NCBI GenBank assembly: GCA_934096715.1
Contig: CAKOMQ010000005.1
Location: 1 to 61,231, forward strand
Length of the DNA: 61,231 bases
Direction: 5' to 3'
Source: an uncultured Bacilli bacterium
Lineage (GTDB): Bacteria > Bacillota_I > Bacilli_A > RF39 > UBA660
Part shown: positions 3,478-61,231 of the stretch, piece after piece
How positions within the stretch are numbered: position 1 is the stretch's first letter
Layout: every line of letters starts with the position of its first letter
The notes under the pieces: generated by a model
What the model was told of the DNA's origin: nothing
Database searches by the model: none
Seen by the model: the letters and a program-made list of their open reading frames with translations, nothing else
Made by a program: the position numbers and the translations under genes

Positions 3478-3632
3478 TGTAGCTGTATTGTTGAGCGCAT
3501 GGACCAGTAATGGTTGACGAGGATAGTAGTTGTCGAATTATCAGCGGATGCTACTACGGATAAGGTTTATTCGTTAAATATACTACAAAATGTAAAATCT
3601 AAGATTACAACAAAAAGTATATTAAGGAAAGG
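3478..3632 (+). promoter_or_regulatory. glmS ribozyme/riboswitch
   Basis: Lies directly upstream of glmS. Cleavage-site context TTG/AGCGC at 3494. Conserved core GACGAGG and CAGCGGATGC. Confidence 0.85.
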
Positions 3633-5402: not shown

Positions 5403-6479
5403 TTATTTTCTTTCAAGTTTATCTTGTAAGTCACTTACGTAATCTGAAACATGAGAATTAGGATGTATTCCTAATTTTTTCATTTCTTTATAATATTCTA
5501 ATTCAGTTAAATTATTTAACATCATTAATTTTTTTAATACATAAATAGCTTTTTCACGATCAAATTTATATAGTTCATATAACTCAATTGCTACAAGATA
5601 TCCAAATAAGTTAGGAATTGTGTATTTTAAAATGTTTGAGTTAATAAAATCAATATACTCGCTATCATAGTTAAATCTTTTTAAAGCTTCTCTTTTAAAT
5701 ATTTTATTCTTTTTACATCCAATTTCATCAAATAACTTTGCTAAATTAATCATTTCATTCGCATCATAAGCAAGAGAAATATTGTCACCAAAAATGCTGT
5801 AAGCATAGTCATAAACATGATTCAACTTTTGTTTTTTTGCTAAGAAATCTGTAAGTAATAATTCAAAAAATAGAGAATACGATTCTTCTAAGAAAAGCTT
5901 TTTATCTGACATTAAATTAAAATGATTCATAGTAAATGCTATAGCGTGAGCATACTCATGTATACTAGAGTATATTGGAACTAAACCTTCTGATTGCCTG
6001 ATTTTCATGTAAACTTTATTAAAATAAGGTATTCCAAATGTACAAGCTTCAACAATATCATCAGCCATATTTCCGAATGTTACATTAGTATATCTTTCTT
6101 TGAATATTTCATTAAATATTTTAAAGAATTCTTTATCAAATGATTTGTAAAAATCATGTGTCATACTAAGTATTGCATCTTTACTAAATTTTTCTTTGTT
6201 TTCTTTTAATTCAAAAGGAAATAGAAATGTCTCATTATATTTAGCACTATTAATATCTTCAACTAAAAATGAATGTGTTTTCAAATATATAGAATTAGAT
6301 TCTAAACATTCCTTAGTTGATGCAAATTCTCCTAAGACTTCTAATTCTTGTATAAAATCTTCTATAGATCTAATATTTCTATTAATTTCAGCTCTCTCTT
6401 GATTACTTTTTCCTTTTTTTAATCTTTCTAATAAATCTATTTGATCCATTAAATTATATTTAGTCCATATATATTTCAT
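5403..6479 (-). CDS. HExxH-motif protein, possible zinc metallopeptidase
   Basis: HEYAH motif in a 358-aa ORF. Family not assignable by eye. Confidence 0.4.
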   Translation of the reverse strand: MKYIWTKYNLMDQIDLLERLKKGKSNQERAEINRNIRSIEDFIQELEVLGEFASTKECLESNSIYLKTHSFLVEDINSAKYNETFLFPFELKENKEKFSKDAILSMTHDFYKSFDKEFFKIFNEIFKERYTNVTFGNMADDIVEACTFGIPYFNKVYMKIRQSEGLVPIYSSIHEYAHAIAFTMNHFNLMSDKKLFLEESYSLFFELLLTDFLAKKQKLNHVYDYAYSIFGDNISLAYDANEMINLAKLFDEIGCKKNKIFKREALKRFNYDSEYIDFINSNILKYTIPNLFGYLVAIELYELYKFDREKAIYVLKKLMMLNNLTELEYYKEMKKLGIHPNSHVSDYVSDLQDKLERK

Positions 6480-6886
6480 TTTGTACCCGCTTCCTTGGTT
6501 ATTTATCCTATCATAATATTAACTTTATTACAATTAAAACTTGCATTAAAAACTTACAAATTATTTTTCTACATCATTTTTTACAATTTTTTATTAATGA
6601 TATAAAATCCGCAGGCAAAACTTACTTTCTACTATTTTTGTTTCAAATAATTATAAATCGATTTATAAATCTTGTCTTTTTTCTTATAATTTTCTTGTTT
6701 TGAAACATAACCTATGACTTAATACATATTGACTTTAAAATTAATTAATGATACATTTAACATGTAAGTAAAAATAGTACTTTTTAGTCATCAAGAATAT
6801 TAATTTTTTGATTATGAATATTATTATTATTATTGATGATTAAAACAACACATTTAATTCTTTTTAAGAACAAGGAGCGTGGTATT

Positions 6887-9295
6887 ATGTTAAAGAAGAT
6901 ATTAAATGCAATTATTTGTTTAGGCTTAATAATGCAAAATTTTGCTTTTATTTTTCAAGTAGAAGCAGAAGAAATTAATACACCTAATATTAAGACTAGT
7001 GATATTTATCAAGGAAATAAAAAAGCAAAGCTTGATGATAATAATAATTTTATTATTGATAACTATGATGGTGTTTATTTGGATTTGAAACTTGAAAATA
7101 TTGAAGAGTCTAAAGATTATTATATTAAACTTGAAAACAAACAATATTCGATTGGTTTTATGTATGATGATTCATATCAAGATAAAACAAAATTATATTT
7201 TCATTATTTAGATGATTCAAATGGAATTCTAACTTATAATATTAAAGTTTGCGATAACTGGGAATGCAATAAAGTATATACATCAAAAGCAATAAATGTT
7301 AAGATAGACCATTTTGATAAAATTAAAAACAGTAAAGTTATTATTAGTGATATTAATCAAGGTGATAATAATTTTGAGACTAAAGATGAATATGGTTATA
7401 AAAATATATATTTAAATAACAAGCAAACTATTTCTTTAAAATTAACAGGAGAAAATTTAATTGATGATGCTAGTTATGTAGTAAATGGCGATGGATTACA
7501 AAGTAATTTAATTTATAGTGGTAGTGAACTTAAAAAAGGGGTAGAAGTAAAATATTATCCTACTCTAAGATCTAGTAGCTTTAATATTAACGTAGAACTT
7601 CAAGGTATTCAAATTCAACCAAAGATAAAATACAATGATGGAACAAAAACATATGATTATTTTCAAATTATTTTAAATGAAGATGAAAATTTACAAAGTT
7701 ATTCATATAATCTTTTCTATACTAATTATCTGAACAAAAAAATAAAAAAATCTGACTTGGAATACAAAGAATATTATATTATTAATAGTAATTATCATAA
7801 TGATAATAATACATTATCATTGAATATTAATGGGAATAAATATTTAGATAAAGATTATCAAATAACAATCAGTGTCAAGCAAGCTAACAATACAATATAT
7901 AATAAAAAATTAAATGTTAATGGCCTATTATTAAATAATGGTTATCAAATAGAATTGGATGGCTTAGCATTAGAATTAAATAAAGATGAAAATGGAGAAT
8001 TATATGAATTCTATGTTGATGTAGATAATGCAGTGACAAAGCAAGAATACAAATACAACTCTGTAGGTAAAGATGCTTATATTAGTTCTAATATATTTTT
8101 TGAAAATGGTAAAAAAAATCTATCTGTGTTTAGAGGAGATGGAAACTACTTCTTTAATAGTGGAATATATGACACAAATAAAGATGTATTTACAAAGTAT
8201 AATTCAATTTTTCTAAGATATATGGGAAGTAATCTTAACAATGATGAAACTTATGAGTATATTTTAGAATATGGTAACTTTAATGAAAGTAACAATTCAA
8301 GAAACTATGAAGTAACCTTAAAAACAGGTAAAGTAACAGGTTTTTTATTAAATACAATTGGTTTATTATTTAAGGTAGATAATAATAAAAATTATATTAA
8401 TCCTGTATATAAGTTAACATTAAAAAAAGGTGATGAAATACTATATGTAGACGCTCCAGTTATATATATAGTTAATTCTCCAACATTAGCTAATGTAAGT
8501 TTAAAGGCAAATAAAAAGAATTTATATTTAAAAACTAGTGATTTATCATATATTGCCACAAGGAATAGTCAAATAGAATTTTCTGTTTCTGGACTTGGTT
8601 TTGAAGAAAACACATATTATGAATTTGATTATTGTACTTCTTTAAATTATAATAATGAAAATCCAAATGGTAACAATAAATGTGAAAAAGTAAAATTTAA
8701 AGGTAAAGATTTAAATAGTGGTACAGCAGTATTAAAATATGATAAAAAGATAGATAAAAATGTAAAATCAATTGATGTATATTTATATTGTGAATTAAAA
8801 AAATTCTCTTCAGAAAATTCTACTATTCAAGGAGGATTTAATGTTACATTTGTGGATAGTAAAGATTTCTTTCAAAATTTAACAAAATATTTTGTAGATA
8901 ATGTTAATGATTTAATCAAAAATATTAGTAAAAATACCAATGTAGAAGATTTTACTAAAAATGTTGATATTAAAGATAATGGTAAAGTTAAAATATTTGA
9001 TACAAATGGAACAACAGAGATTAACGGTAAAATTGGAACTGGAATGATAGCAAGAGTAGTAAATGAATATGATGAAAATGTGCTTGATTTAGATGTTGTA
9101 GTAAAAGGTGATGTAACTGGAGATGGTAATATTTCAGTTACGGATTTAGCTAAAATTAAAAGACATTTGGCAGGTAACGAAAAATTAACTGGAGTTTATG
9201 AAACAGCTGGAAATATTACTGATTCAGGAAGTGTAAGTATAACTGATTTAGTAAAAATTAGTAGAGATGTAGCTAAAATTCAGGAGGTTAAATAG
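6887..9295 (+). CDS. Large secreted N/K/Y-rich repeat protein with C-terminal dockerin-type repeats
   Basis: SD AAGGAG before ATG 6887, with a signal peptide ending FQVEA/EE. C-terminal GDVTGDGNISVTDLAKIKRHL and GNITDSGSVSITDLVKISRDV match the dockerin Ca-binding repeat pattern. Confidence 0.7.
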   Translation: MLKKILNAIICLGLIMQNFAFIFQVEAEEINTPNIKTSDIYQGNKKAKLDDNNNFIIDNYDGVYLDLKLENIEESKDYYIKLENKQYSIGFMYDDSYQDKTKLYFHYLDDSNGILTYNIKVCDNWECNKVYTSKAINVKIDHFDKIKNSKVIISDINQGDNNFETKDEYGYKNIYLNNKQTISLKLTGENLIDDASYVVNGDGLQSNLIYSGSELKKGVEVKYYPTLRSSSFNINVELQGIQIQPKIKYNDGTKTYDYFQIILNEDENLQSYSYNLFYTNYLNKKIKKSDLEYKEYYIINSNYHNDNNTLSLNINGNKYLDKDYQITISVKQANNTIYNKKLNVNGLLLNNGYQIELDGLALELNKDENGELYEFYVDVDNAVTKQEYKYNSVGKDAYISSNIFFENGKKNLSVFRGDGNYFFNSGIYDTNKDVFTKYNSIFLRYMGSNLNNDETYEYILEYGNFNESNNSRNYEVTLKTGKVTGFLLNTIGLLFKVDNNKNYINPVYKLTLKKGDEILYVDAPVIYIVNSPTLANVSLKANKKNLYLKTSDLSYIATRNSQIEFSVSGLGFEENTYYEFDYCTSLNYNNENPNGNNKCEKVKFKGKDLNSGTAVLKYDKKIDKNVKSIDVYLYCELKKFSSENSTIQGGFNVTFVDSKDFFQNLTKYFVDNVNDLIKNISKNTNVEDFTKNVDIKDNGKVKIFDTNGTTEINGKIGTGMIARVVNEYDENVLDLDVVVKGDVTGDGNISVTDLAKIKRHLAGNEKLTGVYETAGNITDSGSVSITDLVKISRDVAKIQEVK

Positions 9296-10224
9296 TGAAA
9301 AAAGTATTATTAAATTTAATTTTATTACTTTCCGTTTTTGCATTTGCAACCAATGTTAATGCAAGTGGTTTTGAAGCAAATATTATAGGAGATGATACTT
9401 TTAATGAGAGTATAACACTTTATCTTCAAGTTGATAATATGGTTGACTTTTCAGGAGCATGTAAAGGATTATGTGGCTTAGTAGGTAATTTAAATTATGA
9501 TTCAAATAAAATAGAATTATCATCTGTAAAAGCACTAAAACACTTTGATTTAACTCAAGGAGCTTCACTTGTACTTTATAAAAATACTGGTGTTGCAAAC
9601 AAGTCAAATATAATGGAAATGAAGTTTAAAAACAAATCTTTAATAAAAGATGAAACTACGAAAATAACACTTACAAATATAGTTGCTACTGATGGAGATA
9701 AAGATATCAGTACTGATGATGCATCAAAAACAATTAAATTTGTAAACAAAACGATAACTAATGAAAAAAATATCATATCATCAAAAAATAAAAGTACTAA
9801 CACATCAAAAAAGTCAAATAATAATTATTTGTCATCAATTAGTTTAAGTTCAGGGGACATTAAATTTAGTAAAGAAATCCTAACTTATAACATCGAAGTG
9901 GATTATGAAATATCTTCACTTGATATAAAAGCAGAAAGTGAAAACAATAAGGCAACAATTACCGGAATAGGTAACCATTCTTTAAATGTTGGAAAAAATG
10001 TCTTTAAAATAGTAGTTAAAGCTGAAGATAAAAGTTCGAGAGTGTATACATTAAATGTTACTCGTAAAGAAAAAGATTCTTCAACTAATAGTGATATTCT
10101 TAACAATAAAAAAACAGCAAATGATAATAATCGCACTGTAATTATTGTTGTACTTTCTATAATAGTCATTGCAGGAATAACTAGCATTGTTATTTGGAAG
10201 AAAAAAAAAGAAACTAGCATGTAG
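9295..10224 (+). CDS. C-terminally membrane-anchored protein: cohesin-like N-domain plus cadherin-like beta-sandwich domain
   Basis: Signal peptide present. LNYDSNKIELSSVKA is a cohesin-like core. NNYLSSISLSSGDIKFSKEILTYNIEV...YTLNVTRK is a cadherin-like pattern. C-terminal TM segment plus KKKK. The start overlaps the stop of the dockerin gene. Confidence 0.5.
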   Translation: MKKVLLNLILLLSVFAFATNVNASGFEANIIGDDTFNESITLYLQVDNMVDFSGACKGLCGLVGNLNYDSNKIELSSVKALKHFDLTQGASLVLYKNTGVANKSNIMEMKFKNKSLIKDETTKITLTNIVATDGDKDISTDDASKTIKFVNKTITNEKNIISSKNKSTNTSKKSNNNYLSSISLSSGDIKFSKEILTYNIEVDYEISSLDIKAESENNKATITGIGNHSLNVGKNVFKIVVKAEDKSSRVYTLNVTRKEKDSSTNSDILNNKKTANDNNRTVIIVVLSIIVIAGITSIVIWKKKKETSM

Positions 10225-27377: not shown

Positions 27378-29108
27378 ATGAATAAAAAGTATTTTGCATT
27401 TATAATGTTTTTATTTTTTATGTTATCTCCAACAATCGTTAGTGCTTTACCAAAGGGTGTAATAACAGGGACAGGAGTGTCATTAAGGACTGGTCCTGGA
27501 ACTAATTATGGAAAAATTAGTTTTACACTAAAAAAAGGAAATGCTTATGATATGGTAGATACTAATATTGTTAAAGATGAAGGTGGATGTAGTACAGGTT
27601 GGTATAGAATTTATTATAAAAATACAAGTGTTGGTTACGTATGTGGTAAATATTTAACTGTTGATGCAACTGGAACACTAGGAGATATATATGGAAGACC
27701 TTGGACTAGTCCAAAGAAATCAATTAATGGTGGCGCTAAGGTTATTGCTGAAGGCTACATTCAAGCGGGACAGTTTACTGCTTACTTAAAGAAATTCAAT
27801 GTTAATCCAGCAACAGGTAAGGTATATTGGCACCAATATATGGCCAACTTACAAGCTCCTTCTAGTGAAGCTAGAAGTACTTATAATAGTTATGTTAATG
27901 GTGGATTAATTAATTTACAAAGAGAGTTTACTATTCCAATCTTTACAGGAATGCCTGCAAATACTACGCTTCCAGGAAAAAATGCTGAATTATGTTATCA
28001 AGGTGTTATTGATCAAGCTTTTGAAAATAGTTTGAATGAGCAAGGATTTGATGAGACATATAAATGTAAACTTAGAAAACTTCACATTATTCATCCTAAC
28101 TGGATATTTAAATCACTTAAAACTAACTTAGACTTTAATAGATCAGTAATTGCAGAAAAAGGAGTATCATCTATTCAAGGTTCTACAAGTTTATTTGAAT
28201 CAATGGATTCAAATACTTGTAAAAGTTATAATCAAAATTATAATTTAAAAAATGGTTATTGTAATACTGAAGGTACATGGTATATAGCCAATAATCAAAC
28301 AGTTGGTTATTATTTAGACCCACGTAATTTTCTAGATGAAGTAAATATCATGATGTTTGAAAACTTAGGCTATAGTGCTAACTTTACTACTGGAGTTGTT
28401 CAAACTATATTAAATGGAACTTTTATGAGTGGAGCATCTATTCTAGATAATCAAACATATGCAGAAATATTTGTTGAAGCTGGTAAAAATAACAGTGTAA
28501 GTGCTGTATATTTAGCAAGCCTTGCTAGACAAGAAAGTGGAGTTAATGGCTCAATTGCCACAACAGGAGCAGAATTTAATTATGAAGGAATAACTTATAA
28601 AGGACTATATAACTTCTTTAATATTGGAGCTTATTCTACTGCAAGTAGTCCTATTAAAGCTGGTCTTGTATATGCTTCTGGTGGTTATGATAGTGTAAAG
28701 GTAAATCCTACAACACCAAGTGATTCTAATGAAACCACTATTATAAATAAAATAGGCGGTTCTAAATTTAATAATATAATTACTAATATTGGTGTAGGAA
28801 CTACGCAAGATACAATAAGGAACAGATTAAGTGGTCATACCGTATCATTTAGCGGTAGTGGAGTATTAAAAACAGGAATGACTATTACTGTTGACAATAA
28901 ATATACTTACACATTTGCTATTAAAGGTGATGTTGATGGCGATGGTAATATTATGGCTACAGATTATGTAAAAATTAAAAACTATATAATGGAAAGAAGT
29001 GGCAGCGAACTAAATGAAGCTCAAAGAGTGGCTGCTGACATGGATGGTAATGGTTATATAGTTGCAACAGATTATGTTAGAGTAAAAAATATAATAATGG
29101 GGAGATAG
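27378..29108 (+). CDS. Secreted SH3b plus N-acetylglucosaminidase (GH73-like) protein with a C-terminal dockerin
   Basis: Signal peptide. SH3b-like GVSLRTGPGTNY...WYRIYY. LARQESG...LYNFFNIGAY is glucosaminidase-like. Dockerin repeats GDVDGDGNIMATDYVKIKNYI and ADMDGNGYIVATDYVRVKNII. Confidence 0.75.
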   Translation: MNKKYFAFIMFLFFMLSPTIVSALPKGVITGTGVSLRTGPGTNYGKISFTLKKGNAYDMVDTNIVKDEGGCSTGWYRIYYKNTSVGYVCGKYLTVDATGTLGDIYGRPWTSPKKSINGGAKVIAEGYIQAGQFTAYLKKFNVNPATGKVYWHQYMANLQAPSSEARSTYNSYVNGGLINLQREFTIPIFTGMPANTTLPGKNAELCYQGVIDQAFENSLNEQGFDETYKCKLRKLHIIHPNWIFKSLKTNLDFNRSVIAEKGVSSIQGSTSLFESMDSNTCKSYNQNYNLKNGYCNTEGTWYIANNQTVGYYLDPRNFLDEVNIMMFENLGYSANFTTGVVQTILNGTFMSGASILDNQTYAEIFVEAGKNNSVSAVYLASLARQESGVNGSIATTGAEFNYEGITYKGLYNFFNIGAYSTASSPIKAGLVYASGGYDSVKVNPTTPSDSNETTIINKIGGSKFNNIITNIGVGTTQDTIRNRLSGHTVSFSGSGVLKTGMTITVDNKYTYTFAIKGDVDGDGNIMATDYVKIKNYIMERSGSELNEAQRVAADMDGNGYIVATDYVRVKNIIMGR

Positions 29109-29111
29109 TGT

Positions 29112-30491
29112 ATGAAAAATAAGATAAAATTAATTTTAACAGTATTTGTATCAATGTTATTTGTAGGTAATGTTGATGCTGCTAGTTTTTCAATAAGTGT
29201 TGGTAGTAGAACTCTTAATCCAGGTGGATCTACTACTTTAAGAATAACTGGTAATGATGTAACAGGGAGATTTAATATTACAACAAGTAATGGTTCTGTT
29301 ATATCACTTGGTGATGGAAGTGTATGGGTAGAAAATAATACTCAAACTATAAAGTTAAGTAGTTTAAATATTGGTTCTGCTACAATTACCGTATCACCCG
29401 TAAGTGGTGCAAGTGATTCTAGTGGTAATCCAGTAACTTTAGGGGCAAAAAGTGTAACAATTAATGTCCAAAAACCAAGAGATAAATCTAAAGATAATAA
29501 TTTAAAAAGTCTAAGCGTAGAAGGGTTTACATTAAACGAAGAATTCAGTAAAGATAAATTAGAATATACTGTAGATGTACCAGAAGGAACAACAAGTATA
29601 AATATAATAGCGCCTTCAAATGATGGATACGCAACAATTACTGGGGCTGGAGTTCAAACTGTTAATCCAGGAGCTAATAATTTTGATATAGTAGTAACAC
29701 CAGAACTTGGAGAAGCTAAGACATATAAATTAGTAGTTAATGTAATTGATCAAAATCCAGTTGAAGTTACTGTAGATAAGTTAAAATATACATTAGTAAA
29801 ATATGAAAATGCATTTACTTGTCCAGATAACTTTGAAGCTATTACAATTGAAATAGGAGAGTTCAAAGTACCTGCTTGTCAAAATGATAAAATTAAATAT
29901 ACTTTAGTAGGTTTAAAGAATGAAGATGGAACAGTTACGCTTGCAAACTATAAAAATAATAAATATACTCTATTTAATGAAATAAAAAATAGTAATCAAA
30001 GTATAGTTCCTTTAAAATTTAAAGGTAGTATAAATAATTATACTAAGAGTTCTGTTAAAATTAATGGACTTGATGTAGAGTGTTATAAATATACAAAATA
30101 TAGTAAAACCTGTATTATATACGCATTAAATGTTGATACTGGTAAAGAAAACTATTATATATATGATACAGAAAATAAGAATTATATAGCGTATGATAAT
30201 GAATATATTGATTATTTAGAGACTAATAATAAGTATATGTTTATTGCATGTATATCTTTTGCGGCTGGTTTATTTATATCATTTATATCTCTAATATGTG
30301 TTAGTAAAAAGAAAAAGAAGAAAAATAATTCTATAAAAGAAAATAAAACTAATATAGAAGAAAAGCCAGTAAAAGAAGAAGTAAAAAAGAAAGAAAAAAT
30401 TGAAAATAAAAAAGAAGAAATAGATACTGAAGAAGTTTATAATATTTTTGAAGAAGAAAAAAAATCTAAAAAGAAGAATAAAGTGAAATAG
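29112..30491 (+). CDS. C-terminally membrane-anchored protein: Ig-like or cohesin-like N-domain plus cadherin-like domain, with a K/E-rich tail
   Basis: Signal peptide. NNLKSLSVEGFTLNEEFSKDKLEYTVDV...YKLVVNV is a cadherin-like pattern. TM segment FIACISFAAGLFISFISLICV plus KKKKKK. Same architecture as the 9295-10224 ORF. Confidence 0.55.
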   Translation: MKNKIKLILTVFVSMLFVGNVDAASFSISVGSRTLNPGGSTTLRITGNDVTGRFNITTSNGSVISLGDGSVWVENNTQTIKLSSLNIGSATITVSPVSGASDSSGNPVTLGAKSVTINVQKPRDKSKDNNLKSLSVEGFTLNEEFSKDKLEYTVDVPEGTTSINIIAPSNDGYATITGAGVQTVNPGANNFDIVVTPELGEAKTYKLVVNVIDQNPVEVTVDKLKYTLVKYENAFTCPDNFEAITIEIGEFKVPACQNDKIKYTLVGLKNEDGTVTLANYKNNKYTLFNEIKNSNQSIVPLKFKGSINNYTKSSVKINGLDVECYKYTKYSKTCIIYALNVDTGKENYYIYDTENKNYIAYDNEYIDYLETNNKYMFIACISFAAGLFISFISLICVSKKKKKKNNSIKENKTNIEEKPVKEEVKKKEKIENKKEEIDTEEVYNIFEEEKKSKKKNKVK

Positions 30492-33855: not shown

Positions 33856-33884
33856 TTGAAAATAATACTCGTTTGTAGTATTAT
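33856..33884 (+). promoter_or_regulatory. Sigma-A-type promoter of surface-protein gene B
   Basis: TTGAAA, 17-nt spacer, TATTAT. Duplicated at 36834-36862. Confidence 0.6.
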
Positions 33885-33922
33885 TTTTTTAGTAGAAAAA
33901 ATAGAAAGTGAGACCCCGAAAA

Positions 33923-36728
33923 ATGAAGAAAAATGCTAATTTATTAGCAACCTTCCAGAAGTTAAAAAGCCTACTGGGGGGGGGGCGAGAAACAACAAAA
34001 AAGAACTTTAATTATAGCATTAATATTAGTAGAATTTCTATTAATTATATGTGCTTACATTTCATATAATAATAAAAATTTAGACAAATATATATTTAAT
34101 TCAAAAGATTTAAAAAGTAGTGGTTTATTTGCCATTATGTTAGAAGATTCAGATGGTAATTACAAGCAAAGTACTAAAGATGAATTTCCAGGTTATGAAT
34201 ACTTTTATAATCAAACAAAATCAGGATGCATGAATTCTAGTGGTAAGACAATACCGGATTCTCTTTTATATGATCAAGAAAATAAAAAAGCTACAGTAAA
34301 ATTGAACTCATCTGGTATGTGTTATCTTTATTTTAATAAATATAAAACAGATAACTTTGCATCCAAACTAATTGATAGTGGCAATTTATGGGATAGTGGA
34401 CTTGAAGGCGATGGCTACAGATTTACAGGAACAGGAATAACATGTTCTTATGATGATGGTAAATATGTTATCGCAGCTGATAATCAACAAACAACACCAA
34501 GTTGTCCTAAAAGATATAATTATACAAGGACAACTATATCAGATGGTACAACTACAGATTATACTTATCAGACAAGTTGTCCAACAGATACGACAACCTA
34601 TACTTATTCATGCACTGAATTAAACGGAGAAACTAGTAGCAAAAATATTCCATCTAATTTTGTTTGTTTTGGAACAACCGATGTGTCTGAATGTACAGCA
34701 AACCAAGATAAATACATGTATAGAATAATTGGAGTATTTACTGATTCAAGTGAAAAGCAACACGTAAAACTTATAAAATATACTAGTATTGGTTCTTATC
34801 AATGGCATTCAGATGGTTCTGAAACAGTGACATGGAAAAATACAGATTTATATAGCGGATTAAATGGAAGTTATTTCTTAACAAATACAGCCTACGATTA
34901 TATACAAAATACAACATGGCTAAATAAAATCGAAAATTGGACATGGAATGCCTTGTTAACCAATGTTGGTGAAAATGAAGGGGATAATGATAATCCGGAT
35001 TTAGGCGGTAGTACTATTAAAGGTGTGTATTTCAGTGAAATGAATATAAATTCTAGCGAAAAATTATGTGGGAATTACAATGGAGAAAAAATTACATGCA
35101 ACAATGGTTTATTGACAACACCTACAGGAAAAATAGGCTTAATGTATGTAAGTGATATGTTGTTGTCCTATGGACCAGAGAATACAGAAACATCTAAACA
35201 TTCTCAATTAAACACAACATGGCTTAATGCAAATAGTAACATAGGCAAAATAAGTGACTGGTCAATATCTCAAGATGGTTTTTATCCAGATGACGATAGT
35301 TATGTCTACTACTTTGATTATGATGGTTCTCCTGATTATGGTTATTACACAGATAATTATGATACTAGGCCAGTATTTTATCTAACAAGTGATGTTTCTT
35401 CTAGTGAAGGCTCTGGTACAATAGATAATCCATATATTCTAGGCACGTCTTCTAGTAGTAGTTCTTTAAAAATAGATGTAAAAAATGCAAAGAATGTTAT
35501 GACTGCAACAATAAAAAAAGGAACAGGTAATTTAACTAAGTATTGCATAAATAATAAAGCAACAATAAATGACTGTGAATGGAAGAGTATTACAACTACA
35601 ACAATAACTTACACAATGCCTGAATATAAAAAATATTATATACATGTAATAGATAATCAAGGTTTTATTGCACATGCATACCTAAACTATGAAGCTAAGA
35701 TACTTAGTCAAAAACTTATAGATACAAAAGAAATGTGGCAAAGTGGACTTGAAGATGATGGATATCGTTATACTGGAACAGGAATAATTTGTTCATATGA
35801 TAATGGATTTTATTATAAGTTAGCAGATAATCAACTTTCTAATCCGAGTTGTCCTACACTCTATAATTATACTACTACCCAAGGTGGTTACTCTTATCAA
35901 GATTCATGTCCTGATGGAACCACATGTACATCAGTCAATGGTGAAGTTGCTGAAGATGCATCAATACCAAACAATTATATTTGCTTTGGAACAGTAAGTC
36001 AAAATGAATGTTTAAATAATAAGGATAAATATATGTATCGAATAATTGGAGTGTTTAAAGATGCGAGTGGTTCTAACCATGTAAAGTTAATAAAAAATGA
36101 AACGTTAGTAGGAGTACAATGGACTAGTGACACTAGTTATGTAAGCTTTGGCGAAAGTAATATTTATAATGAAATAAATGGAGATGCGTTTATGAATAAT
36201 ACTTATTATGATTATTTGCAAAACACAAAATGGTTAAATAAAATAGAGAATTGGACATGGAGTGCTCTTGATACTAATAATCAATATTACTACTATTTTC
36301 AAATAAGCGACATATATCTACATGAGCTAAATAAATCTTCAAATACAAATTCAACAGGAACATGGACAACCCCAGTAGGTAAAATAGGCTTAATGTATGT
36401 AAGTGATTATGCACTTTCAATTGGAGATAATGCTATAAATAGTGCACTAACACCAAGTAAAGAGTTGTTAAAAAATAGTTGGATTCATTGTAATTTATTA
36501 AAAGATAATTGTATGGAATATACTATTACAAATTATGGGGCGAGAATTGTTAATAATAGAAACTTAGGAATTTATGTATTTACAATATCTTATAATGGCG
36601 AAGTTCCTGTAAATGGTGGAACATCATCATCATTTATTTATCGACCGGTCTTCTATTTAACAAGTGATGTTAAATCAATTCCAGAAGGCGATGGTACTAT
36701 CACAAATCCATATATGATTGTGGAATAA
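33923..36728 (+). CDS. Phase-variable surface protein B. Two tandem RPVFYLT-type domains. Frame-shifted (OFF) at the G10 tract in this sequence.
   Basis: ATG 33923 reads MKKNANLLATFQKLKSLLGGG and then stops at 34067-34069. The body frame is open from 33966 and encodes a basic segment plus a TM anchor, with no start codon before 34137. G11 or G8 would give one continuous ORF. Confidence 0.75.
33976..33985 (+). repeat. G10 homopolymer tract (contingency tract) in the 5' coding region of gene B
   Basis: Counted directly: ctactGGGGGGGGGGcgag. Confidence 0.95.
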
Positions 36729-36833
36729 TTAAATACGGTATAAAGAATATCTACTAATGCTTTCTATCTATCTAATATAGTAGGTATCTTTATATATAGA
36801 TAAGCTTTCCTTAATGGAGAGCTTTTTTGGTAC

Positions 36834-36862
36834 TTGAAAATAATTGGAATTTGTTGTATCAT
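36834..36862 (+). promoter_or_regulatory. Sigma-A-type promoter of surface-protein gene C
   Basis: TTGAAA, 17-nt spacer, TATCAT. Confidence 0.6.
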
Positions 36863-36899
36863 TTTAGTAGAAAAAAATAGAAAGTGAGACCCCGAAACA

Positions 36900-39096
36900 A
36901 TGAAGAAAAATGCTAATTTATTAGCAACCTTCCAGTTTATAAAAAGCCTACTGGGGGGGGGGCGAGAAACAACAAAAGAAAACTTTAGTTATAGTATTAA
37001 TATTAATAGAATTGCTATTAATAATATGTGCTTATATATCATATAACAATAAAACTTTAGACAAATATATTTTTGGAAGTAGTGATTTAAAGAATACTAA
37101 TCTTTTTGCAATTATGATCGAAGATGCAAATGGAGAATATAAAGAAAGTTCATTAACTTCTTTTCCAGGATATGACTATTTTTATAATCAAGAAAAATCT
37201 AGTTGTATGGATATGTCTGGTAAACCAATAACTGACTCACTTTTATATAATCAAGACACTAAAACAGCAACAATAACAATTGGAGACACAAGTAGTTGTT
37301 ACTTATATTTTGATACTTGGAAAAGTACTCCGAATTTTGCATCTAAATTAATTGAGTCTAATGTGATGTGGCAAAGCGGACTTGATGGAGATGGTTATCG
37401 TTTTACTGGTACTGGATCTTATAGTAGTAGTACTACACCTTCAAACTTTATATGCTTTGGGACATTTGATAAATCTACATGTACAAGTAATCCTGATAAA
37501 TACATGTATCGTATAATTGGAGTATTTGATGGATATATTAAATTAATAAAATTAACAAGTTTAACTAGTAATCTTCAGTACGCAGGAGCTGGTTTTTCTC
37601 AAATTTCGGACTCTGGTCGTGTTTTTGCAAATTCTGTCTTAAAGAAAGAATTAAATGGGACATCATTTCTAACTAATACGACTTATGATTATCTGCAAAA
37701 TACAACTTGGTCAAATAAAATTGCTGTAAATACAAAAAAATCAGTTAATACTACAACATATACAAACAGTGGTCCAAATTATTATAATAGTGTTAGTCCA
37801 AGTCAAATATATCTTCATGAGTATAATAAATCAGGCAATTCTAATACTAATGGAGAATGGTCAACTTACAATGATAAAATTACAGTAATGGATGCAAGTG
37901 ACTATGTATTATCTTTAGGAAGCACAGCGAAATCAATGACTACTGGTACTTATACTAATAGAAATACTTTAAAAACAAGTTGGCTATTTCTGGGTAACAA
38001 TAAATATGGAAATACAAGTGGAAATTACACAACAGAACAAACAACAGCATCTTATGGAATACAATCAACTATAAGTTACATTTATTCTTGGACAATTAAT
38101 CCTAGTGGTTATTTATATCAAACATCTATAAGTAATTCATATGCAGTAAGACCAGTTTTCTATCTTACAAAAGATACAACTAGTAACAATGGTACAGGAA
38201 CATTAAGTGATCCATATTTAATAGATGAAGTTCCTAAAGGAATAAATATTAATTTATCAAATACTGATAATATTCTATCTATTAAAATAACTGATGATTA
38301 TAGTACTCAGCTTAAATATTGTGTTAATAATAGTTCTTCAATAAGTGGATGTGAGTGGAAAAATGTTAACTCAAGTAATATTTCATATAATATGACAGAT
38401 GATGGTACCTATTATGTTCATGTTATAGATAGCTTAGGTTATATAAATCATAATAGCTTTAGTTATGTTGCCAGTGATTCTTATAATTTTGTTTTAGCGA
38501 TACCAGAGAAATGTTCAGATATAAATGGAAATTATTTTAATTTGCAACGTATGCCATCTGCAGAAAAATTAGGTACAAGGGCTGATGCCATAACAGAAGA
38601 AGATATTACTGTTTATGGAGTAAAAACAGAAAATTTAATGAGTTCCGATATTATTAATACAACAGAAAATGGAATAATATCATTTCCAAGTAATTTTGAA
38701 ACACAAAATTCATTTCCTTCATTATTTGATGCTTTGTACACCTGGTACTACAAGCTTACGGCAGGATATTCCCAATTTGAGTATGATTTCTATACACCAT
38801 ATACTATAAATAATGCTAGATATGATGGAATATATCAAAATAAGATGTTTGGAAATAGCTCAGTAGCACTGGATTATGATGAAATAACTTATTGGGTCGG
38901 ATACAAATGGATATTTTATGAAGTACCGCCAGGAAGTAATTTTGATGTCTTGAATCCAGATAGTCAGTATAGAATAAATTTTGTAACTAAAAAAGATACA
39001 ACTTTACCAATATACCAACTAATAAACAATGTGAAACTTCGTGGTAATTATACTTACTATGGTATTTATGAATATTATGAAGTATATTCAGAATAA
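36900..39096 (+). CDS. Phase-variable surface protein C. One RPVFYLT-type domain, an Ig-like module and a unique C-terminal domain. Frame-shifted (OFF) at G10.
   Basis: ATG 36900 reads MKKNANLLATFQFIKSLLGGG and then stops at 37044-37046. The body frame from GGC 36961 encodes GEKQQKKTLVIVLILIELLLIICAYISYNNKTL.... The only in-frame alternative start (TTG 37012) lies inside the TM helix. Confidence 0.75.
36953..36962 (+). repeat. G10 homopolymer tract in the 5' coding region of gene C
   Basis: Counted directly: ctactGGGGGGGGGGcgag. Confidence 0.95.
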
Positions 39097-47893: not shown

Positions 47894-48265
47894 ATGGATT
47901 ATTTATATTATTTAATTTATTTTATAGGGGTATTTCTTATTATATTTCTATGTGACTATTTAATAATGAAGAAACCTTATTTAAACAAGAAAAAGAAGAA
48001 AAAAGATAATGAAGTATTTGAACTCACTTATATAGTTAGTAAATTTAAATTAGATAAGAGTAAACTAAATATTAAAAAGTGTTTAATAGAGTTTTCTTTA
48101 ATGAATGCCTTTATTATTAGCTTTACAGTAGTAGTACTCTATATACTAGATTTATTTATAATATGGCAATTCTTAATAGGATTTATCCTGTTAGTGGGTC
48201 TTATTTATTCAATATATGAAATTTATGGAAATATTTTAGTTAAGAAAGGATATATTAAAAAATGA
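47894..48265 (+). CDS. Small membrane protein, 123 aa, co-transcribed with leuS
   Basis: SD AAAGGAG. Hydrophobic segments flank a K-rich loop. The stop overlaps the leuS start (ATGA). Confidence 0.6.
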   Translation: MDYLYYLIYFIGVFLIIFLCDYLIMKKPYLNKKKKKKDNEVFELTYIVSKFKLDKSKLNIKKCLIEFSLMNAFIISFTVVVLYILDLFIIWQFLIGFILLVGLIYSIYEIYGNILVKKGYIKK

Positions 48266-51072
48266 ATTATAATGAGATAGAAAAAAAATGGCAAAGTATT
48301 TGGGATAAAGAAGAAAGTTTTAAAGCAGTTAATGGAAGTAGTAAAGAACCATACTATATTTTAGTAGAATTTCCTTATCCAAGTGGAGCAGGACTTCATG
48401 TAGGTCATGTACGTAGTTATACTGCTCAAGATGCGATAGCGAGAATGAAAAGAATGCAAGGCTACAACGTATTATTCCCAATGGGATGGGATGCTTTTGG
48501 AGCACCTGCTGAAGGATATGCAATAAAAAATCATATTCATCCTAAAGATGCTGTAAAAGAAAATATCCATACTTTTAAAGGACAAATGCAAAATTTAGGA
48601 TTTTCATTTGATTGGTCAAGAGAATTTTCAACAACTGATCCAGAATATTATAAATGGACACAATGGCAATTTTTAAAGTTCTTTGAACATGGTATGGCTT
48701 ATAAAGATAAAATACCTGTTAACTGGTGTCCTAATTGTAAAACAGTTCTTTCTAATGAAGATAGTGCTGGTGGTGTATGTGAAAGATGTGGTACTAGTGT
48801 AGTTCAAAAAGAAAAAAGTCAATGGATGCTAAGAATGAGTAATTATGCTGAAGACTTACTTAATGGACTTGAAGATACTCATTTTGCTAGTAAAGTAAAA
48901 CTAGGTCAAATTAACTGGATAGGTAAAAGTACTGGTGCAGAAGTGAATTTTAAAGTAGCTGATACTGATTATGAATTTACTGTTTATACTACTAGACCTG
49001 ATACATTATATGGAGTTACTTATTGTGTATTATCTCCAGAACATGAACTCGTGGATAAGATAACTAAACCTGAAAACTACGAAGAAGTATTTAAGTATAA
49101 AGAAGAATGTTCTCATAAGAATGAAATGGAAAGAACAGAACTTAATAAAGAAAAAACCGGTGTATTTACAGGAAGCTTTGCTATTAATCCAGTTAATAAT
49201 GAATTAATACCAATCTATATAAGTGATTATGTTTTAGTAAGTTATGGAACTGGTGCTATTATGGCTGTTCCAGCTCATGATGAAAGAGACTATGAATTTG
49301 CTAAAAAGTTTAATATTCCAATTAGGCAAGTTCTTGAAGAGATAACTGGCAAGAAAAATGATTCTGAAAGTAAGAAAAACTCAATAGTAGCGATTGTTTA
49401 TGATGAATTAGAAAATAAATATTTAACAATTAATTGGGGTAAACTTGGTGGTAGATTATTTGTTGGTGGAACTATTAAAGAAAATGAAACTCCTGTTGAA
49501 TGTGCTATTAGAGAAATAGCAGAGGAAACTGGCTATACTGATATTGAATTAGTAAGAGAATCATTTAAAATAAACCATCATTATTATGCTTATAATAAAG
49601 ATAAGTATTTTGATATAGAAGCAACACCTATATTATTTAAATTAAATAGTTACAAAAAAATTGAACAAAATCTTGATGAAGATGAGATATTTAAGATTGA
49701 ATGGGTGAGTAAAGATATTATTGAAAAAGAAATAATAGATGAATTACATAAAAAATCTTATTTATATACATTAAATGATACTGCTTTAGTAGGAGATGGT
49801 ATTCATATTAATTCTGGTATTTTAGATGGCCTTAATAAAGAAGATGGAATTAATAAGATGATCGAATACTTAACTACAAATAATATAGGTAAAAAGAAAA
49901 CTAATTATAAGATGCGTGATTGGATATTCTCAAGACAAAGATTCTGGGGAGAACCAATACCTATTGTAATATGTGATCATTGTGGTTATGTACCTCTTCC
50001 TGAAAGTGAATTACCATTAGTACTTCCTGATGTTGCTAATTATGAACCAACTGATAATGGAGAGAGTCCACTTGCTAATATAGAGTCTTGGGTTAATACT
50101 ACTTGTCCAAAGTGTGGTCGTCCTGCTAAAAGAGAAACAGATACAATGCCTAACTGGGCTGGATCTAGCTGGTATTTCTTAAGATTTATGGATGCTCATA
50201 ATGATAAAGAATTTGCTAGTATGGATGCTATGAAATATTGGCAAAAAGTTAACTGGTATAATGGTGGTATGGAACATACAGCAAGACACTTACTATATGC
50301 TAGATTTTGGGTACAATTTCTATATAATATAGGTCTTGTTCCTAATAAAGAAATGATTGATACAAGAGTTAGTCACGGTATGGTACTTGGTAGTGATAAT
50401 CAAAAAATGAGTAAAAGTAAAGGTAATGTAATTAATCCAGATGATATAGTTAGTGAGTTTGGAGCAGATACTCTAAGAGTATATGAAATGTTTATGGGTG
50501 ATTATGAACAAGATGCTCCATGGAGTACTGAATCCTTACGTGGATGTAAAAGATTTATTGACAGAGTAGTTAGACTTAAAGATAAAGTAGTTGAAGGAAC
50601 ATCTTATTCTTCTAACTTAGAAGTAATCATTAATAAATCTATTAAAAAGATTAGTTATGACTTACTAAATATGGGTTACAATACAGTAGTATCTCAATTA
50701 ATGATTATGTTAAATACTTATGAAGAACAAGACACTATTACTTCATCTGATTATAATGTATTCTTAAAACTATTAAATCCTATCGCTCCACATATAACTG
50801 AAGAGTTAAATGAACAAATAGGATATGAAAAAATATGTGATAGTACTTGGCCAGAGTATGATGAATCTAAAACTGTAGATAATAATCTTACTATTGGAGT
50901 ACAAGTAAATGGTAAGTTAAGAGCAGAAATTAATATTACTCTAAACGAAGATAAAGCTAGTATTTTAGCTAAAGCTAAAGAAGAAGAAAACATAAAAAAA
51001 TATCTTGAAGGACACACTATTATAAAAGAAATAGTAGTACCTAACAAGATAGTTAACATAGTTGTTAAATAG
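48262..51072 (+). CDS. leuS: Leucine--tRNA ligase with an inserted Nudix-fold domain
   Basis: HVGHVRSY (HIGH), KMSKSKGN, and the CP1 editing motif TTRPDTLYG. The extra segment at ~49339-49788 contains GTIKENETPVECAIREIAEETGY, which matches the Nudix box GX5EX7REUXEEXGU. Confidence 0.95.
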   Translation: MNYNEIEKKWQSIWDKEESFKAVNGSSKEPYYILVEFPYPSGAGLHVGHVRSYTAQDAIARMKRMQGYNVLFPMGWDAFGAPAEGYAIKNHIHPKDAVKENIHTFKGQMQNLGFSFDWSREFSTTDPEYYKWTQWQFLKFFEHGMAYKDKIPVNWCPNCKTVLSNEDSAGGVCERCGTSVVQKEKSQWMLRMSNYAEDLLNGLEDTHFASKVKLGQINWIGKSTGAEVNFKVADTDYEFTVYTTRPDTLYGVTYCVLSPEHELVDKITKPENYEEVFKYKEECSHKNEMERTELNKEKTGVFTGSFAINPVNNELIPIYISDYVLVSYGTGAIMAVPAHDERDYEFAKKFNIPIRQVLEEITGKKNDSESKKNSIVAIVYDELENKYLTINWGKLGGRLFVGGTIKENETPVECAIREIAEETGYTDIELVRESFKINHHYYAYNKDKYFDIEATPILFKLNSYKKIEQNLDEDEIFKIEWVSKDIIEKEIIDELHKKSYLYTLNDTALVGDGIHINSGILDGLNKEDGINKMIEYLTTNNIGKKKTNYKMRDWIFSRQRFWGEPIPIVICDHCGYVPLPESELPLVLPDVANYEPTDNGESPLANIESWVNTTCPKCGRPAKRETDTMPNWAGSSWYFLRFMDAHNDKEFASMDAMKYWQKVNWYNGGMEHTARHLLYARFWVQFLYNIGLVPNKEMIDTRVSHGMVLGSDNQKMSKSKGNVINPDDIVSEFGADTLRVYEMFMGDYEQDAPWSTESLRGCKRFIDRVVRLKDKVVEGTSYSSNLEVIINKSIKKISYDLLNMGYNTVVSQLMIMLNTYEEQDTITSSDYNVFLKLLNPIAPHITEELNEQIGYEKICDSTWPEYDESKTVDNNLTIGVQVNGKLRAEINITLNEDKASILAKAKEEENIKKYLEGHTIIKEIVVPNKIVNIVVK

Positions 51073-51197: not shown

Positions 51198-51304
51198 AAA
51201 TTAAGTGTACACAAAAATTTGTAAAATATCAACCATTTTATTGCAATTCATAATCAAATTTGGTATGATAAAATAGATAAATTAAATAAAAATATTTAAA
51301 AATT

Positions 51305-51451
51305 ATGAATTTTATGACCCGAAATTTTATACCGGTAAGTTATAAAATTCCCCTTCAGACGCTAAAAAGCCTACTGGGGGGGGGGGTTGAGAAAATGAGT
51401 CTGATGTGTGAATATAGGGAAGTAAAAATTTCTCTTTTTTATTTTTTATAA
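51305..51451 (+). CDS. 48-codon upstream ORF containing the G11 tract (MNFMTRNFIPVSYKIPLQTLKSLLGGGVEKMSLMCEYREVKISLFYFL)
   Basis: Not in the ORF track (under 60 aa). Shares ...LKSLLGGG-(G/V)EK with the B and C leaders. Ends 15 nt before ATG 51466. Confidence 0.4.
   Translation: MNFMTRNFIPVSYKIPLQTLKSLLGGGVEKMSLMCEYREVKISLFYFL
51376..51386 (+). repeat. G11 homopolymer tract in the leader of gene D
   Basis: Counted directly: ctactGGGGGGGGGGGttgag. Confidence 0.95.
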
Positions 51452-51465
51452 AAGGAAGTGAGAAA

Positions 51466-52998
51466 ATGAAAAAAATGGATAAGAAACAAAGAATATCTTT
51501 TATCATTGGGATATTTGCATTATTGATTTTTGTAATAGGAGCAACATATGCATACTTTAGTATTGGAACTAATAATACTACTACAGATTCAAGTGTTGTA
51601 GGTACAACAAACAAGTATGGTACAGCAAGTTTAACAACTAATACAAGCAAACTATATTTAAAATTTACGAGTGATGAAATGAGTGAAGACTATCAAGGTA
51701 CAACATATTACGCAAATTCTGATAGTGCTGGAACACCCCTTACAACTAATCCAAACTATGTGTTAGCAACCGCAAGTCTAGCAGATGGAGATTTACCACT
51801 TGATTGCGAGTATAATTATAAGGTAACTGCTACAGTAACAAAAGAAATTAATGATGGTAGTGACTCTGATGTAAAAATAACCATTGGAAGTACAACAAAA
51901 ACATTAAAAGAATTAACTGCTGCAGGTACTGATGGAATAGTAATAAATGGTAAACTAAAAAACTTAGTAACAGGAACAAATCAAACAATAAGTTTATCCA
52001 GTACAGTAACAAATACACCATCAAATCAAAATGGACTATCAGGTAATTCATATACAGTAACTATTTCTCCATATATAAGTGGTAATACAAAGTCATTTTC
52101 ATGTAAGTTGCATGAAAAAACACTTGCCGAAAAATTAATAGCAAGTGGAAACTTATGGGAAAGTGGACTAGAAGGCGATGGATATCGTTATATAGGAAGT
52201 GGTGCAGTAGGAACTAGTACTAATCCAAATAACTTTATATGCTTTGGTACAACAGATAAATCTGCTTGTACAGCAAATCAAGATAAATACATGTATAGAG
52301 TAATAGGAGTATTCTCAGATGCAAATGGAGATAATCATGTTAAGCTAATCAAATATAAACAACTAGTATCAGCAAAATGGAATACAAAAGATACAAATGT
52401 AAATTGGGAAGATAGTACATTATATGCAAGTCTAAATGGCACAGAATTCTTAACAAATACAACATATGATTATTTACAAGATACAACATGGAGTAATAAA
52501 ATAGAAAACTGGACATGGAGTGCCATAAATACAAAAACGTCTAATGGAGGTAATGGATCAAATTATTACAGCGTATTAACACCAAGTCAAATATATTTAC
52601 ATGAAATGAACAGAAGTACAAAAACAAGTACAGTAGGTGAATGGACAACACCAGCAGGAAAAATAGGATTAATGTATGCAAGTGATTATACATTATCATT
52701 GGGATCAAGTGCTTTAGCAATAACAGGAAGTACTAGTGCAAATCAAGACAAATTAAAAACAGGCTGGATGCATCAAAGTAATAATGATATTTCTAAATCA
52801 ACTACAGAATGGACGCTTTCTCGTCGTGGGTCTAATGCTGGTTACTTCGAAGCGTGGAGTGTCGCTAGTAGCGGCTTTGTCAGCGGCATTTTTGTGTACA
52901 CTGCGTATGGTACTCGACCAGTCTTCTATCTTACATCTAACGAATCGACTTCTAGTGGAGATGGAAGTTTAGAAAATCCATTTATCATTAGTGAATAA
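51466..52998 (+). CDS. Surface protein D of the family (one RPVFYLT-type domain) with a SipW-type-looking signal peptide
   Basis: SD AAAGGAAGTGAG. N-terminal TM segment ending IGATYAYFS. The C-terminal ~290 aa align with the B and C domains (LWESGLEGDGYRY, DKYMYRVIGVF, NKIENWTWSA, GKIGLMYASDY, RPVFYLTS). Confidence 0.85.
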   Translation: MKKMDKKQRISFIIGIFALLIFVIGATYAYFSIGTNNTTTDSSVVGTTNKYGTASLTTNTSKLYLKFTSDEMSEDYQGTTYYANSDSAGTPLTTNPNYVLATASLADGDLPLDCEYNYKVTATVTKEINDGSDSDVKITIGSTTKTLKELTAAGTDGIVINGKLKNLVTGTNQTISLSSTVTNTPSNQNGLSGNSYTVTISPYISGNTKSFSCKLHEKTLAEKLIASGNLWESGLEGDGYRYIGSGAVGTSTNPNNFICFGTTDKSACTANQDKYMYRVIGVFSDANGDNHVKLIKYKQLVSAKWNTKDTNVNWEDSTLYASLNGTEFLTNTTYDYLQDTTWSNKIENWTWSAINTKTSNGGNGSNYYSVLTPSQIYLHEMNRSTKTSTVGEWTTPAGKIGLMYASDYTLSLGSSALAITGSTSANQDKLKTGWMHQSNNDISKSTTEWTLSRRGSNAGYFEAWSVASSGFVSGIFVYTAYGTRPVFYLTSNESTSSGDGSLENPFIISE

Positions 52999-60921: not shown

Positions 60922-61003
60922 ATGTGAAGTTTTAGTTGCATATCTATACTAAAAATGATATGATTAATTTGATAATAAAAGAGAATAAAATTATTTAAAA
61001 ATT

Positions 61004-61192
61004 ATGAATTTTATGACCCGAAATTTTATACCGATAAGTTATAAAATTCCCCTTCAGAACGCTAAAAAGCCTACTGGGGGGGGGGTTGAGAAAATGAGTC
61101 TGATGTGTAAATATAGGGAAGTAAGTTCTTCTCTTTTTTATTTAGAAAAGAAGGAAGGTAGTCTGAAAACAAAAAACAAATTTATTTTATAG
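61004..61192 (+). CDS. Fourth copy of the G-tract leader ORF. The downstream partner gene is absent, decayed, or lies beyond the window.
   Basis: Homologous to 51305-51451 at the nucleotide level. Reads through G10 in frame (…PTGGGVEKMSLMCKYREV…). Confidence 0.35.
   Translation: MNFMTRNFIPISYKIPLQNAKKPTGGGVEKMSLMCKYREVSSSLFYLEKKEGSLKTKNKFIL
61076..61085 (+). repeat. G10 homopolymer tract, fourth copy
   Basis: Counted directly: ctactGGGGGGGGGGttgag. Confidence 0.95.
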
Positions 61193-61231
61193 AATTAAGT
61201 AAAAAAGGGCAGACTTCCCCTTACCCCAAAG

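Follow-up and report, generated by a model that had tools for sequence, protein, structure and literature searches.

The locus of paralog C

We examined a stretch of 61,231 nucleotides (contig CAKOMQ010000005.1, positions 1–61,231, assembly GCA_934096715.1) of an uncultured Bacilli bacterium of the human gut, referred to over its full length as the window, which has a G+C content of ~26% and carries two tandem paralogous genes, B and C, each with a run of ten guanines (G10) near its 5' end. Our subject is paralog C, in which this tract separates a short leader open reading frame (ORF) from a main reading frame that lies +1 relative to the frame of the ATG at 36900 (Table 1). Direct reading of positions 36700–37300 confirmed where the initial annotation of this locus had placed the promoter-like TTGAAA-17-TATCAT, the ATG, the tract and the stop of the short frame, and the peptides that it quoted upstream and downstream of the tract were both found as stated. 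The neighbours of C are rseP, cdsA and ffh. A terminator-like hairpin with a T run closes the transcription unit of paralog B just ahead of the C promoter, and thus C forms a transcription unit of its own. By a consensus scan, promoter-like matches numbered 56 in this AT-rich window compared to 43.6 expected, so that the C site alone is not distinctive; it is conserved in the same arrangement with paralog B (33856–33884), and the 5' regions of the two genes are near-identical. A Shine-Dalgarno (SD) motif of the GAAGTGAG type, which is kept in all homologous leaders, also lies ahead of the ATG at 51466 of a further family member, gene D.

The window contains exactly four G/C runs of at least 7 nucleotides, all on the + strand (G10 at 33976, G10 at 36953, G11 at 51376 and G10 at 61076), and each is found at the 5' end of a gene or a leader from a single surface-protein family, within the shared flanks AAAAAGCCTACT-Gn-(C/TT)GAGAAA. 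Runs of at least 9 G's are expected 0.01 times per dinucleotide-preserving shuffle, compared to the four separate tracts present.

Table 1 Coordinates of paralog C and related features in the window.
Feature	Position	Strand	Remarks
Paralog B, same cassette	33856–36728	+	promoter-like 33856–33884, ATG 33923, G10 33976–33985, ORF end 36728
Terminator-like hairpin and T run	36802–36824	+	9-pair stem, 4 G-C pairs, then TTTTGG
Promoter-like TTGAAA-17-TATCAT of C	36834–36862	+	also picked up by the consensus scan
SD-like GAAAGTGAG	36880–36888	+	11 nucleotides ahead of ATG 36900; read from sequence
Predicted three-way junction, C leader	36890–36962	+	folding prediction; start codon in the junction
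P1 (predicted)	36890–36893, 36959–36962		CCCC pairs with GGGG
Pre-tract leader ORF MKKNANLLATFQFIKSLL	36900–36952	+	from ATG 36900; cytoplasmic N-terminal tail of the full-length protein
48-codon OFF-state ORF	36900–37046	+	ends at TAA 37044–37046
P2 (predicted)	36911–36926		hairpin TGCTAATTTATTAGCA
P3 (predicted)	36928–36936, 36950–36958		CCTTCCAGT pairs with ACTGGGGGG
G10 homopolymeric tract (candidate switch)	36953–36962	+	out of frame (OFF) in the window
Main reading frame of C	36961–39096	+	+1 relative to the ATG frame
Single transmembrane anchor coding region TLVIVLILIELLLIICAYISY	36982–37044	+	sequence read directly
G11 tract, flanks AAAAAGCCTACT-Gn-TTGAGAAA	51376–51386	+	untranslated leader of family gene D (ORF 51466–52998)
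G10 tract, second D-type leader (E)	61076–61085	+	at window end

Tract length sets the reading frame

We rebuilt C with tracts of different length and computed the products. Tracts of G8, G10 and G11 lead to stops after 28, 48 and 29 codons, respectively, and G9 and G12 give proteins of 731 and 732 amino acids (aa), such that a change of a single unit toggles between the full-length and the truncated computed product. The initial annotation had stated that one additional G would turn B and C on. This is wrong, as G11 in C stops after 29 codons; the ON state is reached by the loss of one G (G9) or the gain of two (G12). The nearest ON state of C is thus one G shorter, and the same holds for B, which with G9 encodes 934 aa. 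The downstream frame of C has a stop just ahead of the tract, and no ATG, GTG or TTG follows the tract before the TTG at 37012. Since this TTG falls mid-helix in the sole transmembrane segment, a complete membrane anchor can be obtained from the upstream ATG only.

It had also been argued that B and C show amino-acid conservation despite nucleotide differences on both sides of the tract. Downstream, in the +1 frame, the argument stands: 8 synonymous and 9 mostly conservative changes over 45 codons read, at the sequence level, as a coding signature. Upstream it does not, because only two adjacent codons differ there (0 synonymous, 2 non-synonymous) and the comparison cannot separate peptide from nucleotide conservation. 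A predicted RNA structure, which is found again in untranslated leaders (see below), places a further constraint on the leader, so that conservation of the leader cannot be read purely as a peptide signal.

ON and OFF alleles in other assemblies of the same species

We read the DNA of the tract at orthologous loci of the same species in gut metagenome assemblies that stem from different projects and assemblers, all of them consensus assemblies. For C, seven loci carry G10 (the window, L015, L016, L017, L018, L042 and L044) and four carry G9 (L036, L037, L038 and L039), the latter encoding intact proteins of 731/732 aa. Paralog B has G10 in the window, L015 and L042–L044, and G9 in L039 and L019. 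The flanks of the tract are identical across all the G9 and G10 alleles read, and the pre-tract leader ORF is intact in every allele seen, ON or OFF. Clusters of orthologs with at least 90% identity are split in the same manner: C is called as an OFF-type protein of 694/695 aa on ~24 contigs and as the 731/732-aa ON form on 4, and B as 863 aa on ~15 contigs and as the 934-aa ON form on 3. The homolog P0127 matches the G9 reconstruction of C (731 aa) in length and in opening residues, the two features that were compared. Among contigs with both tracts, which in the window lie 2,977 bp apart, four are (10,10) and one is (9,9), with two more containing gaps; no discordant B/C pair was seen that would point to independent switching of the two genes.

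In two independent assemblies a scaffold N-gap falls exactly on a tract (L036 2184–2197, in B; L043 6822–6831, in C). Variation in tract length could account for these gaps, as could difficulty in reading through poly-G, and they give only a hint of switching.

L019 carries at 6001–8805 a B-type allele with at least 90% identity to window positions 33923–36728 (934 aa, G9, ON) downstream of topA, with a further leader copy at 8961–9015. In the window, paralog B follows rseP, and the topA site of L045 is occupied by a different paralog, an arrangement that suggests exchange of family members between loci.

The tract recurs in diverged homologs

A search with the G9 protein of C yielded 342 homologs, none of them named and nearly all in metagenome assemblies of the human gut, and we classified the N-termini of the top 68 homolog clusters. 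In fourteen of the 68 the same leader, MK(K/R)NANLLATFQ..KSLL-Gly(n)-EKQ(Q/H)KRTL, continues in frame into the membrane helix. Their glycine runs have n of 2 in two clusters, 3 in seven and 4 in one, corresponding to G6, G9 and G12, and four of the 14 have interrupted runs (GGD, EGG, DGG) that keep the frame. A further 17 clusters have proteins that begin at internal starts (MLLIICAY.., MIED..), which is how gene callers treat OFF alleles, 3 start immediately after the tract (P0006, P0011 and P0014), 5 have other leaders with a Gly run, and 29 have no Gly run and possess their own short tail and helix.

Individual genomes show the range of forms that the tract can take. Both paralogs of L040, a metagenome-assembled genome (MAG) from NCBI with 26% GC and sporulation genes, have G10. 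In L045 the topA-linked paralog has G10 and the greA-linked paralog has G10 followed directly by an ATG (9990–10003: G10-C-ATG-AAA..., encoding MKRQKRTL...), an arrangement that may let the gene evade phase control, its G run taking the role of an SD-like element. A B/C-type gene in L046 carries the interrupted, in-frame 9-nucleotide sequence GGAGGGGGG (8192–8200), a candidate locked-ON allele. In L047 an unrelated leader with a strong SD contains an in-frame G12, and in L048 a third leader type contains a G9 that is out of frame, in both cases at the same place, ahead of the transmembrane helix. Because these unrelated leaders also carry G9–G12 there, the recurrent feature is the tract and not its flanks. 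Across leader types, a G9–G12 tract lies between a short tail and the membrane helix, and ON alleles obey a 3n rule.

Thus relatives do not lack the tract in favour of another conserved start codon, and the pre-tract ORF is conserved outside this genome, the two points on which the initial annotation had staked its proposal of a real frame-switching leader, coding in both frames, as opposed to a decayed pseudogene. That proposal is upheld by the G9 alleles with their 731/732-aa products and by the 14 diverged clusters that read through. An exact-motif scan for AAAAGCCTACTGGGGGG in genome and metagenome contigs returned only chance matches in unrelated GC-rich organisms, and scans of viral contigs found nothing.

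The putatively switched protein

The G9 product of C is predicted to consist of a short basic tail, one transmembrane helix and a large extracellular part. Sequence searches of Pfam, NCBIfam and the PDB with B, C and D gave no match. An AlphaFold (AF2) model built with 48 homologs is confident for residues 1–490, with a mean predicted local distance difference test score (pLDDT) of 70 overall and low values in the C-terminal 200 residues; a Foldseek search of this model against the PDB recognised only a generic FN3-like beta-sandwich, and the main domain had no match. An ectodomain of ~300 aa is common to B, C and D and occurs twice in B; by blastp, paralog B (34137–36728) comprises two tandem copies of a ~350-aa ectodomain module that is single in C and D. 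Homologous ectodomains are found behind other export signals, namely a prepilin-type N_methyl domain (PF07963) in P0062 and, in D, a GATYAYFS-type signal that presumably resembles SipW-dependent signals. Going by these sequence features and the model, C is probably an exported, membrane-anchored surface protein, and its family is new and unnamed.

We considered and rejected a type IV prepilin reading of the LIELLL segment of C (PF07963; motif F(T/S)LIE directly after G), as the segment has no Pfam match and KKTLVIVLILIELLL is without Gly at -1. The C-terminus of C (...GIYEYYEVYSE) has no LPXTG and its neighbours do not form a sortase/pilus operon, indicating that C is not a pilin of the Bifidobacterium breve type.

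A predicted RNA junction in translated and untranslated leaders

The leader of C is predicted to fold into a three-way junction in which the G tract supplies the 3' strand (Table 1). An equivalent junction is predicted in the B leader (33914–33985) and in leaders of L019, L040, L041, L045, L046 and L049, and all 13 of the 13 KSLL-type (B/C-type) and D/E-type leaders are consistent with it, 12 when folded independently and L049 only by the alignment consensus fold. Across these leaders P1 is formed by ACCC(C) and the final G's of the tract. For P2 there are four distinct sequences, each of them self-complementary (TGCTAAT/ATTAGCA, TTGCTAAA/TTTAGCAA, AATTTTATA/TATAAAATT and TTTATAAC/GTTATAAA), in an alignment of few independent sequences in which MAFFT puts the P2 helices of two leader classes in different columns. 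P3 is formed by a C/U-rich strand plus CAG on one side and CTG plus six G's on the other, and at the base of this helix the changes in L041a and L041b are compensatory. In the predicted fold both helices close only when ten G's (6 + 4) are available, and in minimum-energy folds P1 forms only with at least 10 G's. The leaders fold with z-scores between -1.7 and -3.1. The two unrelated leader types, L047 and L048, are without the junction structure. A scan of the whole window against Rfam 15 at the gathering threshold found only glmS and tRNA, and permissive scans of 36800–37100 and 51230–51480 gave chance-level matches only.

The same element occurs in untranslated leaders of ~190 nucleotides, which in the window comprise the D (51243–51470) and E (60940–61160) leader regions. 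D, E, L041b and L049 share a layout of a TTGCAA-17-TGnTATGAT promoter (TTGCAA-17-TGgTATGAT in the window), the junction element, a terminator-like hairpin with a T run, an SD and an ATG. No ORF through the tract is conserved among the D/E-type relatives and thus the tract cannot act by frame there. We had considered an upstream ORF through the tract, coupled to the terminator, since in the window D (G11) and E (G10 with a compensating +1 nucleotide upstream) both read through the hairpin; this was ruled out by L041b, which is without a start codon, and by L049, which has a stop ahead of the tract. The D-type leader of L049 contains an interrupted tract, GGGAGGGGGG (2975–2984), a candidate locked allele. 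The flanks in L041 differ from those of the window, yet are alike in both L041 copies (tgtt-G11-caagaaac), a sequence pattern of concerted evolution within the genome. At 61140–61231 no start codon follows the SD-like GAAGGAAGG of the E leader and the window ends in the atypically GC-rich GGGCAGACTTCCCCTTACCCCAAAG, which could be due to the end of the contig or to a join with DNA that is foreign or repeated.

Probable slipped-strand switching and its alternatives

We think it likely that paralog C is a contingency gene, turned ON and OFF by slipped-strand mispairing at the poly-G tract in its 5' coding region. Transcription would start at its own promoter and translation at ATG 36900, with the tract falling between an 18-codon cytoplasmic tail and the single transmembrane anchor. 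With G9 or G12 the ribosome would read through, in the case of G9 to give a 731-aa membrane-anchored extracellular protein. With G10, as in the window, translation would stop after 48 codons, leaving a 48-aa peptide and no anchor-bearing protein; because no alternative start supplies a complete anchor, the G10 protein would not be displayed. The gain or loss of one G at replication would flip the state heritably and reversibly. The same promoter-leader-tract cassette heads B as well as many further members of the family, both at other loci and in genomes of relatives, which would give each cell lineage a combinatorial surface repertoire. This model is built on the tract itself, the frame arithmetic, the presence of both G9 and G10 alleles in the same species and the in-frame read-through in diverged homologs, and we infer high-rate replication slippage within a population, surface exposure and adaptive switching.

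Several points weigh against slippage as the whole explanation. Homopolymer length is prone to error, and several of the G9 contigs have low coverage (~3x by their names). The alleles come from consensus assemblies, so mixed states within one population, like reversibility, are presumed. Out-of-frame alleles of the KSLL type from short-read assemblies are all exactly G10 and never G8, and the sole other out-of-frame length in such a leader is a G11 on one long-read-like contig. The G10-only pattern is compatible with a G9/G10 mutational bias, which is already known, and would also fit a maintained G10 with recoding at the RNA level. Furthermore, nucleotide conservation of the leader, among paralogs and among genomes, far exceeds that of the rest of the protein (~50% identity), and the whole tract is paired in the conserved predicted junction, including in D, E, L041b and L049, so that on the folding model it may have a second role beyond pure slippage.

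Recoding at the RNA level would mean that G10 is maintained and that the full-length protein is made at a set low efficiency, either by RNA-polymerase slippage with the loss of one G or by a +1 frameshift on GGG-GGG-GGG-C, with the leader structure or the SD-like G run as the stimulator. Hairpins in the nascent RNA are known to promote transcriptional slippage at a neighbouring slippery run, and +1 frameshifting in prfB is enhanced by an SD-like element immediately ahead of the shift site; C resembles both systems in having a slippery homopolymer by or in a nascent-RNA helix and an SD-like G-rich sequence just upstream. The missing G8, the recurrence of G10 in most assemblies and in several paralogs and genomes (B, C and E of the window, and twice each in L040 and L045), and the minimum-energy fold of the junction, in which exactly 10 G's form both helices, would all fit. 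However, programmed transcriptional slippage and prfB-type systems keep one fixed out-of-frame genotype in all relatives, whereas in-frame alleles of the C type are common (G6, G9, G12 and the interrupted forms) and we know of no obligatory recoding system that tolerates them. The out-of-frame state and the shift-site context are not conserved in all orthologs, as they would be in an obligatory programmed frameshift or slippage: the codon after the tract varies (CGA, CAA, CAT), leaving no conserved 'hungry' codon or stop, and the L047 and L048 leaders have the tract without the structure. We therefore regard recoding as improbable. The notion that G10 is an artefact or a sign of decay, either a sequencing or assembly error in an intact gene or a frameshifted pseudogene, we consider very unlikely: homopolymers are indeed error-prone and N-gaps do fall on the tracts, but different pipelines arrived at G10 in at least 7 independent assemblies, every allele has an intact promoter, SD and leader ORF and an intact 2.1-kb ORF downstream, there are alleles in the ON state, and four like tracts occupy homologous positions in one window.

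Alternatively, the main function of the tract could be that of a structural element in a cis-regulatory leader RNA, with the three-way junction acting on termination or initiation and the length polymorphism of the tract being incidental. The D-type untranslated leaders, in which the element ACCC(C)GAAA, a hairpin, a C/U-rich strand and AAAAAGCCTACT-Gn precede the terminator-like hairpin and T run, the SD and the ATG, argue for such a role, as do the four self-complementary P2 sequences, the P3 base that covaries in L041a and L041b and the folding z-scores. As the main function of the tract this is nevertheless quite unlikely. Rfam contains no match, any C/U-rich stretch can pair with a run of G's and part of the fold is therefore cheap, the covariation is thin with ~8 distinct sequences, many closely related, and the idea leaves unexplained both the 3n rule of the ON alleles and the G9–G12 tracts in unrelated leaders. 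Such a role could exist alongside the slippage switch, and the predicted leader RNA element may influence slippage or have an effect on initiation or termination; the reading of C as a slippage switch stands regardless. A combined reading is that the tract serves both as a slippage counter and as the 3' strand of the conserved junction (P1 CCCC:GGGG, the P2 hairpin and P3 CCUUCCAG:CUGGGGGG), and would thereby set two outputs, the reading frame in B and C and, in D and E, an RNA fold that steers termination, initiation or transcript slippage. This rests on predicted folds and is, in our view, rather unlikely.

Comparison with known phase-variable systems

The poly-G ON/OFF switch is of a known kind, to which C adds a new member, from a surface-protein family that is itself new and unnamed and belongs to an uncultured low-GC Firmicute of the gut. 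Poly-G/C contingency loci are established in Campylobacter jejuni, Helicobacter, Neisseria and Haemophilus. Like these, C has a tract in the G8–G12 range in the 5' coding region of a putative surface gene in an AT-rich genome, with two-state G9/G10 alleles and with several such genes per genome, from which combinatorial phasotypes would follow. Unlike them, it belongs to a different phylum and an unnamed family, its tract flanks are near-identical between paralogs, and copies of the element lie in untranslated leaders. The vlp, vsp and vsa families of Mycoplasma combine a conserved 5' cassette (promoter, leader and signal) and a homopolymeric ON/OFF tract with divergent ectodomains, and the family of C is similarly a multigene family of putative surface proteins with a conserved tract-bearing cassette and divergent ectodomains. 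However, the Mycoplasma tract is usually a poly-A or poly-T in the promoter spacer that acts on transcription, whereas that of C is a poly-G in the ORF that would act on frame.

The closest documented analogue in a gut commensal, by analogy of arrangement, is Bifidobacterium breve UCC2003. In its pilus genes bbr_0113 and bbr_1889 a G tract splits a short signal-peptide ORF from the main pilin ORF and the reference genome is OFF; the genes of these sortase-dependent pili undergo intragenic G-tract replication slippage, and a change in tract length restores the surface structure (PMC9187656). Both cases involve a Gram-positive gut commensal, a short upstream ORF with the start and the export or anchor signal, a G tract and a reference in the OFF state. 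They differ in that B. breve is a high-GC actinobacterium and the host of C a low-GC Firmicute, and in that C has an N-terminal transmembrane anchor with no LPXTG or sortase operon. Moreover, the C cassette is shared by a multigene family, its tract lies inside a conserved predicted RNA junction, and C is known from sequence alone.

Other features of the window

The leucyl-tRNA synthetase ORF at 48262–51072 (936 aa) contains a stretch of ~90 residues (399–490) that matches NUDIX PF00293 (E = 1e-11), an unusual insertion with the editing domain on one side and the remainder of the catalytic core on the other. A glmS ribozyme at 3483–3632 (RF00234, 67 bits), upstream of the ORF at 3642–5402, fits a Firmicute-type genome. 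Two adjacent putative surface proteins are encoded at 27378–30491, the first of the pair described here with SH3_3 and a type I dockerin domain and its neighbour with a cadherin-like beta-sandwich.

Implications for the family and its host

Phase variation by slippage is textbook knowledge for a few pathogens and is hardly documented in uncultured gut Firmicutes. The locus reveals a family of large, unannotated membrane-anchored proteins that share a portable promoter-leader-poly-G cassette, with ON and OFF alleles visible across human gut metagenomes. Gene callers truncate the genes of this family, as in the 17 of the top 68 clusters that are called from internal starts, and therefore MAG-based inventories of surface proteins will undercount it. 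Metagenomic reads could be used directly to score ON/OFF states at strain level. If the leader RNA structure and the copies in untranslated leaders are real, they would represent a new way for a hypermutable tract to control expression, and if the tract does set both reading frame and RNA fold, a phase-variable riboregulator cassette would have spread through this surface-protein family.

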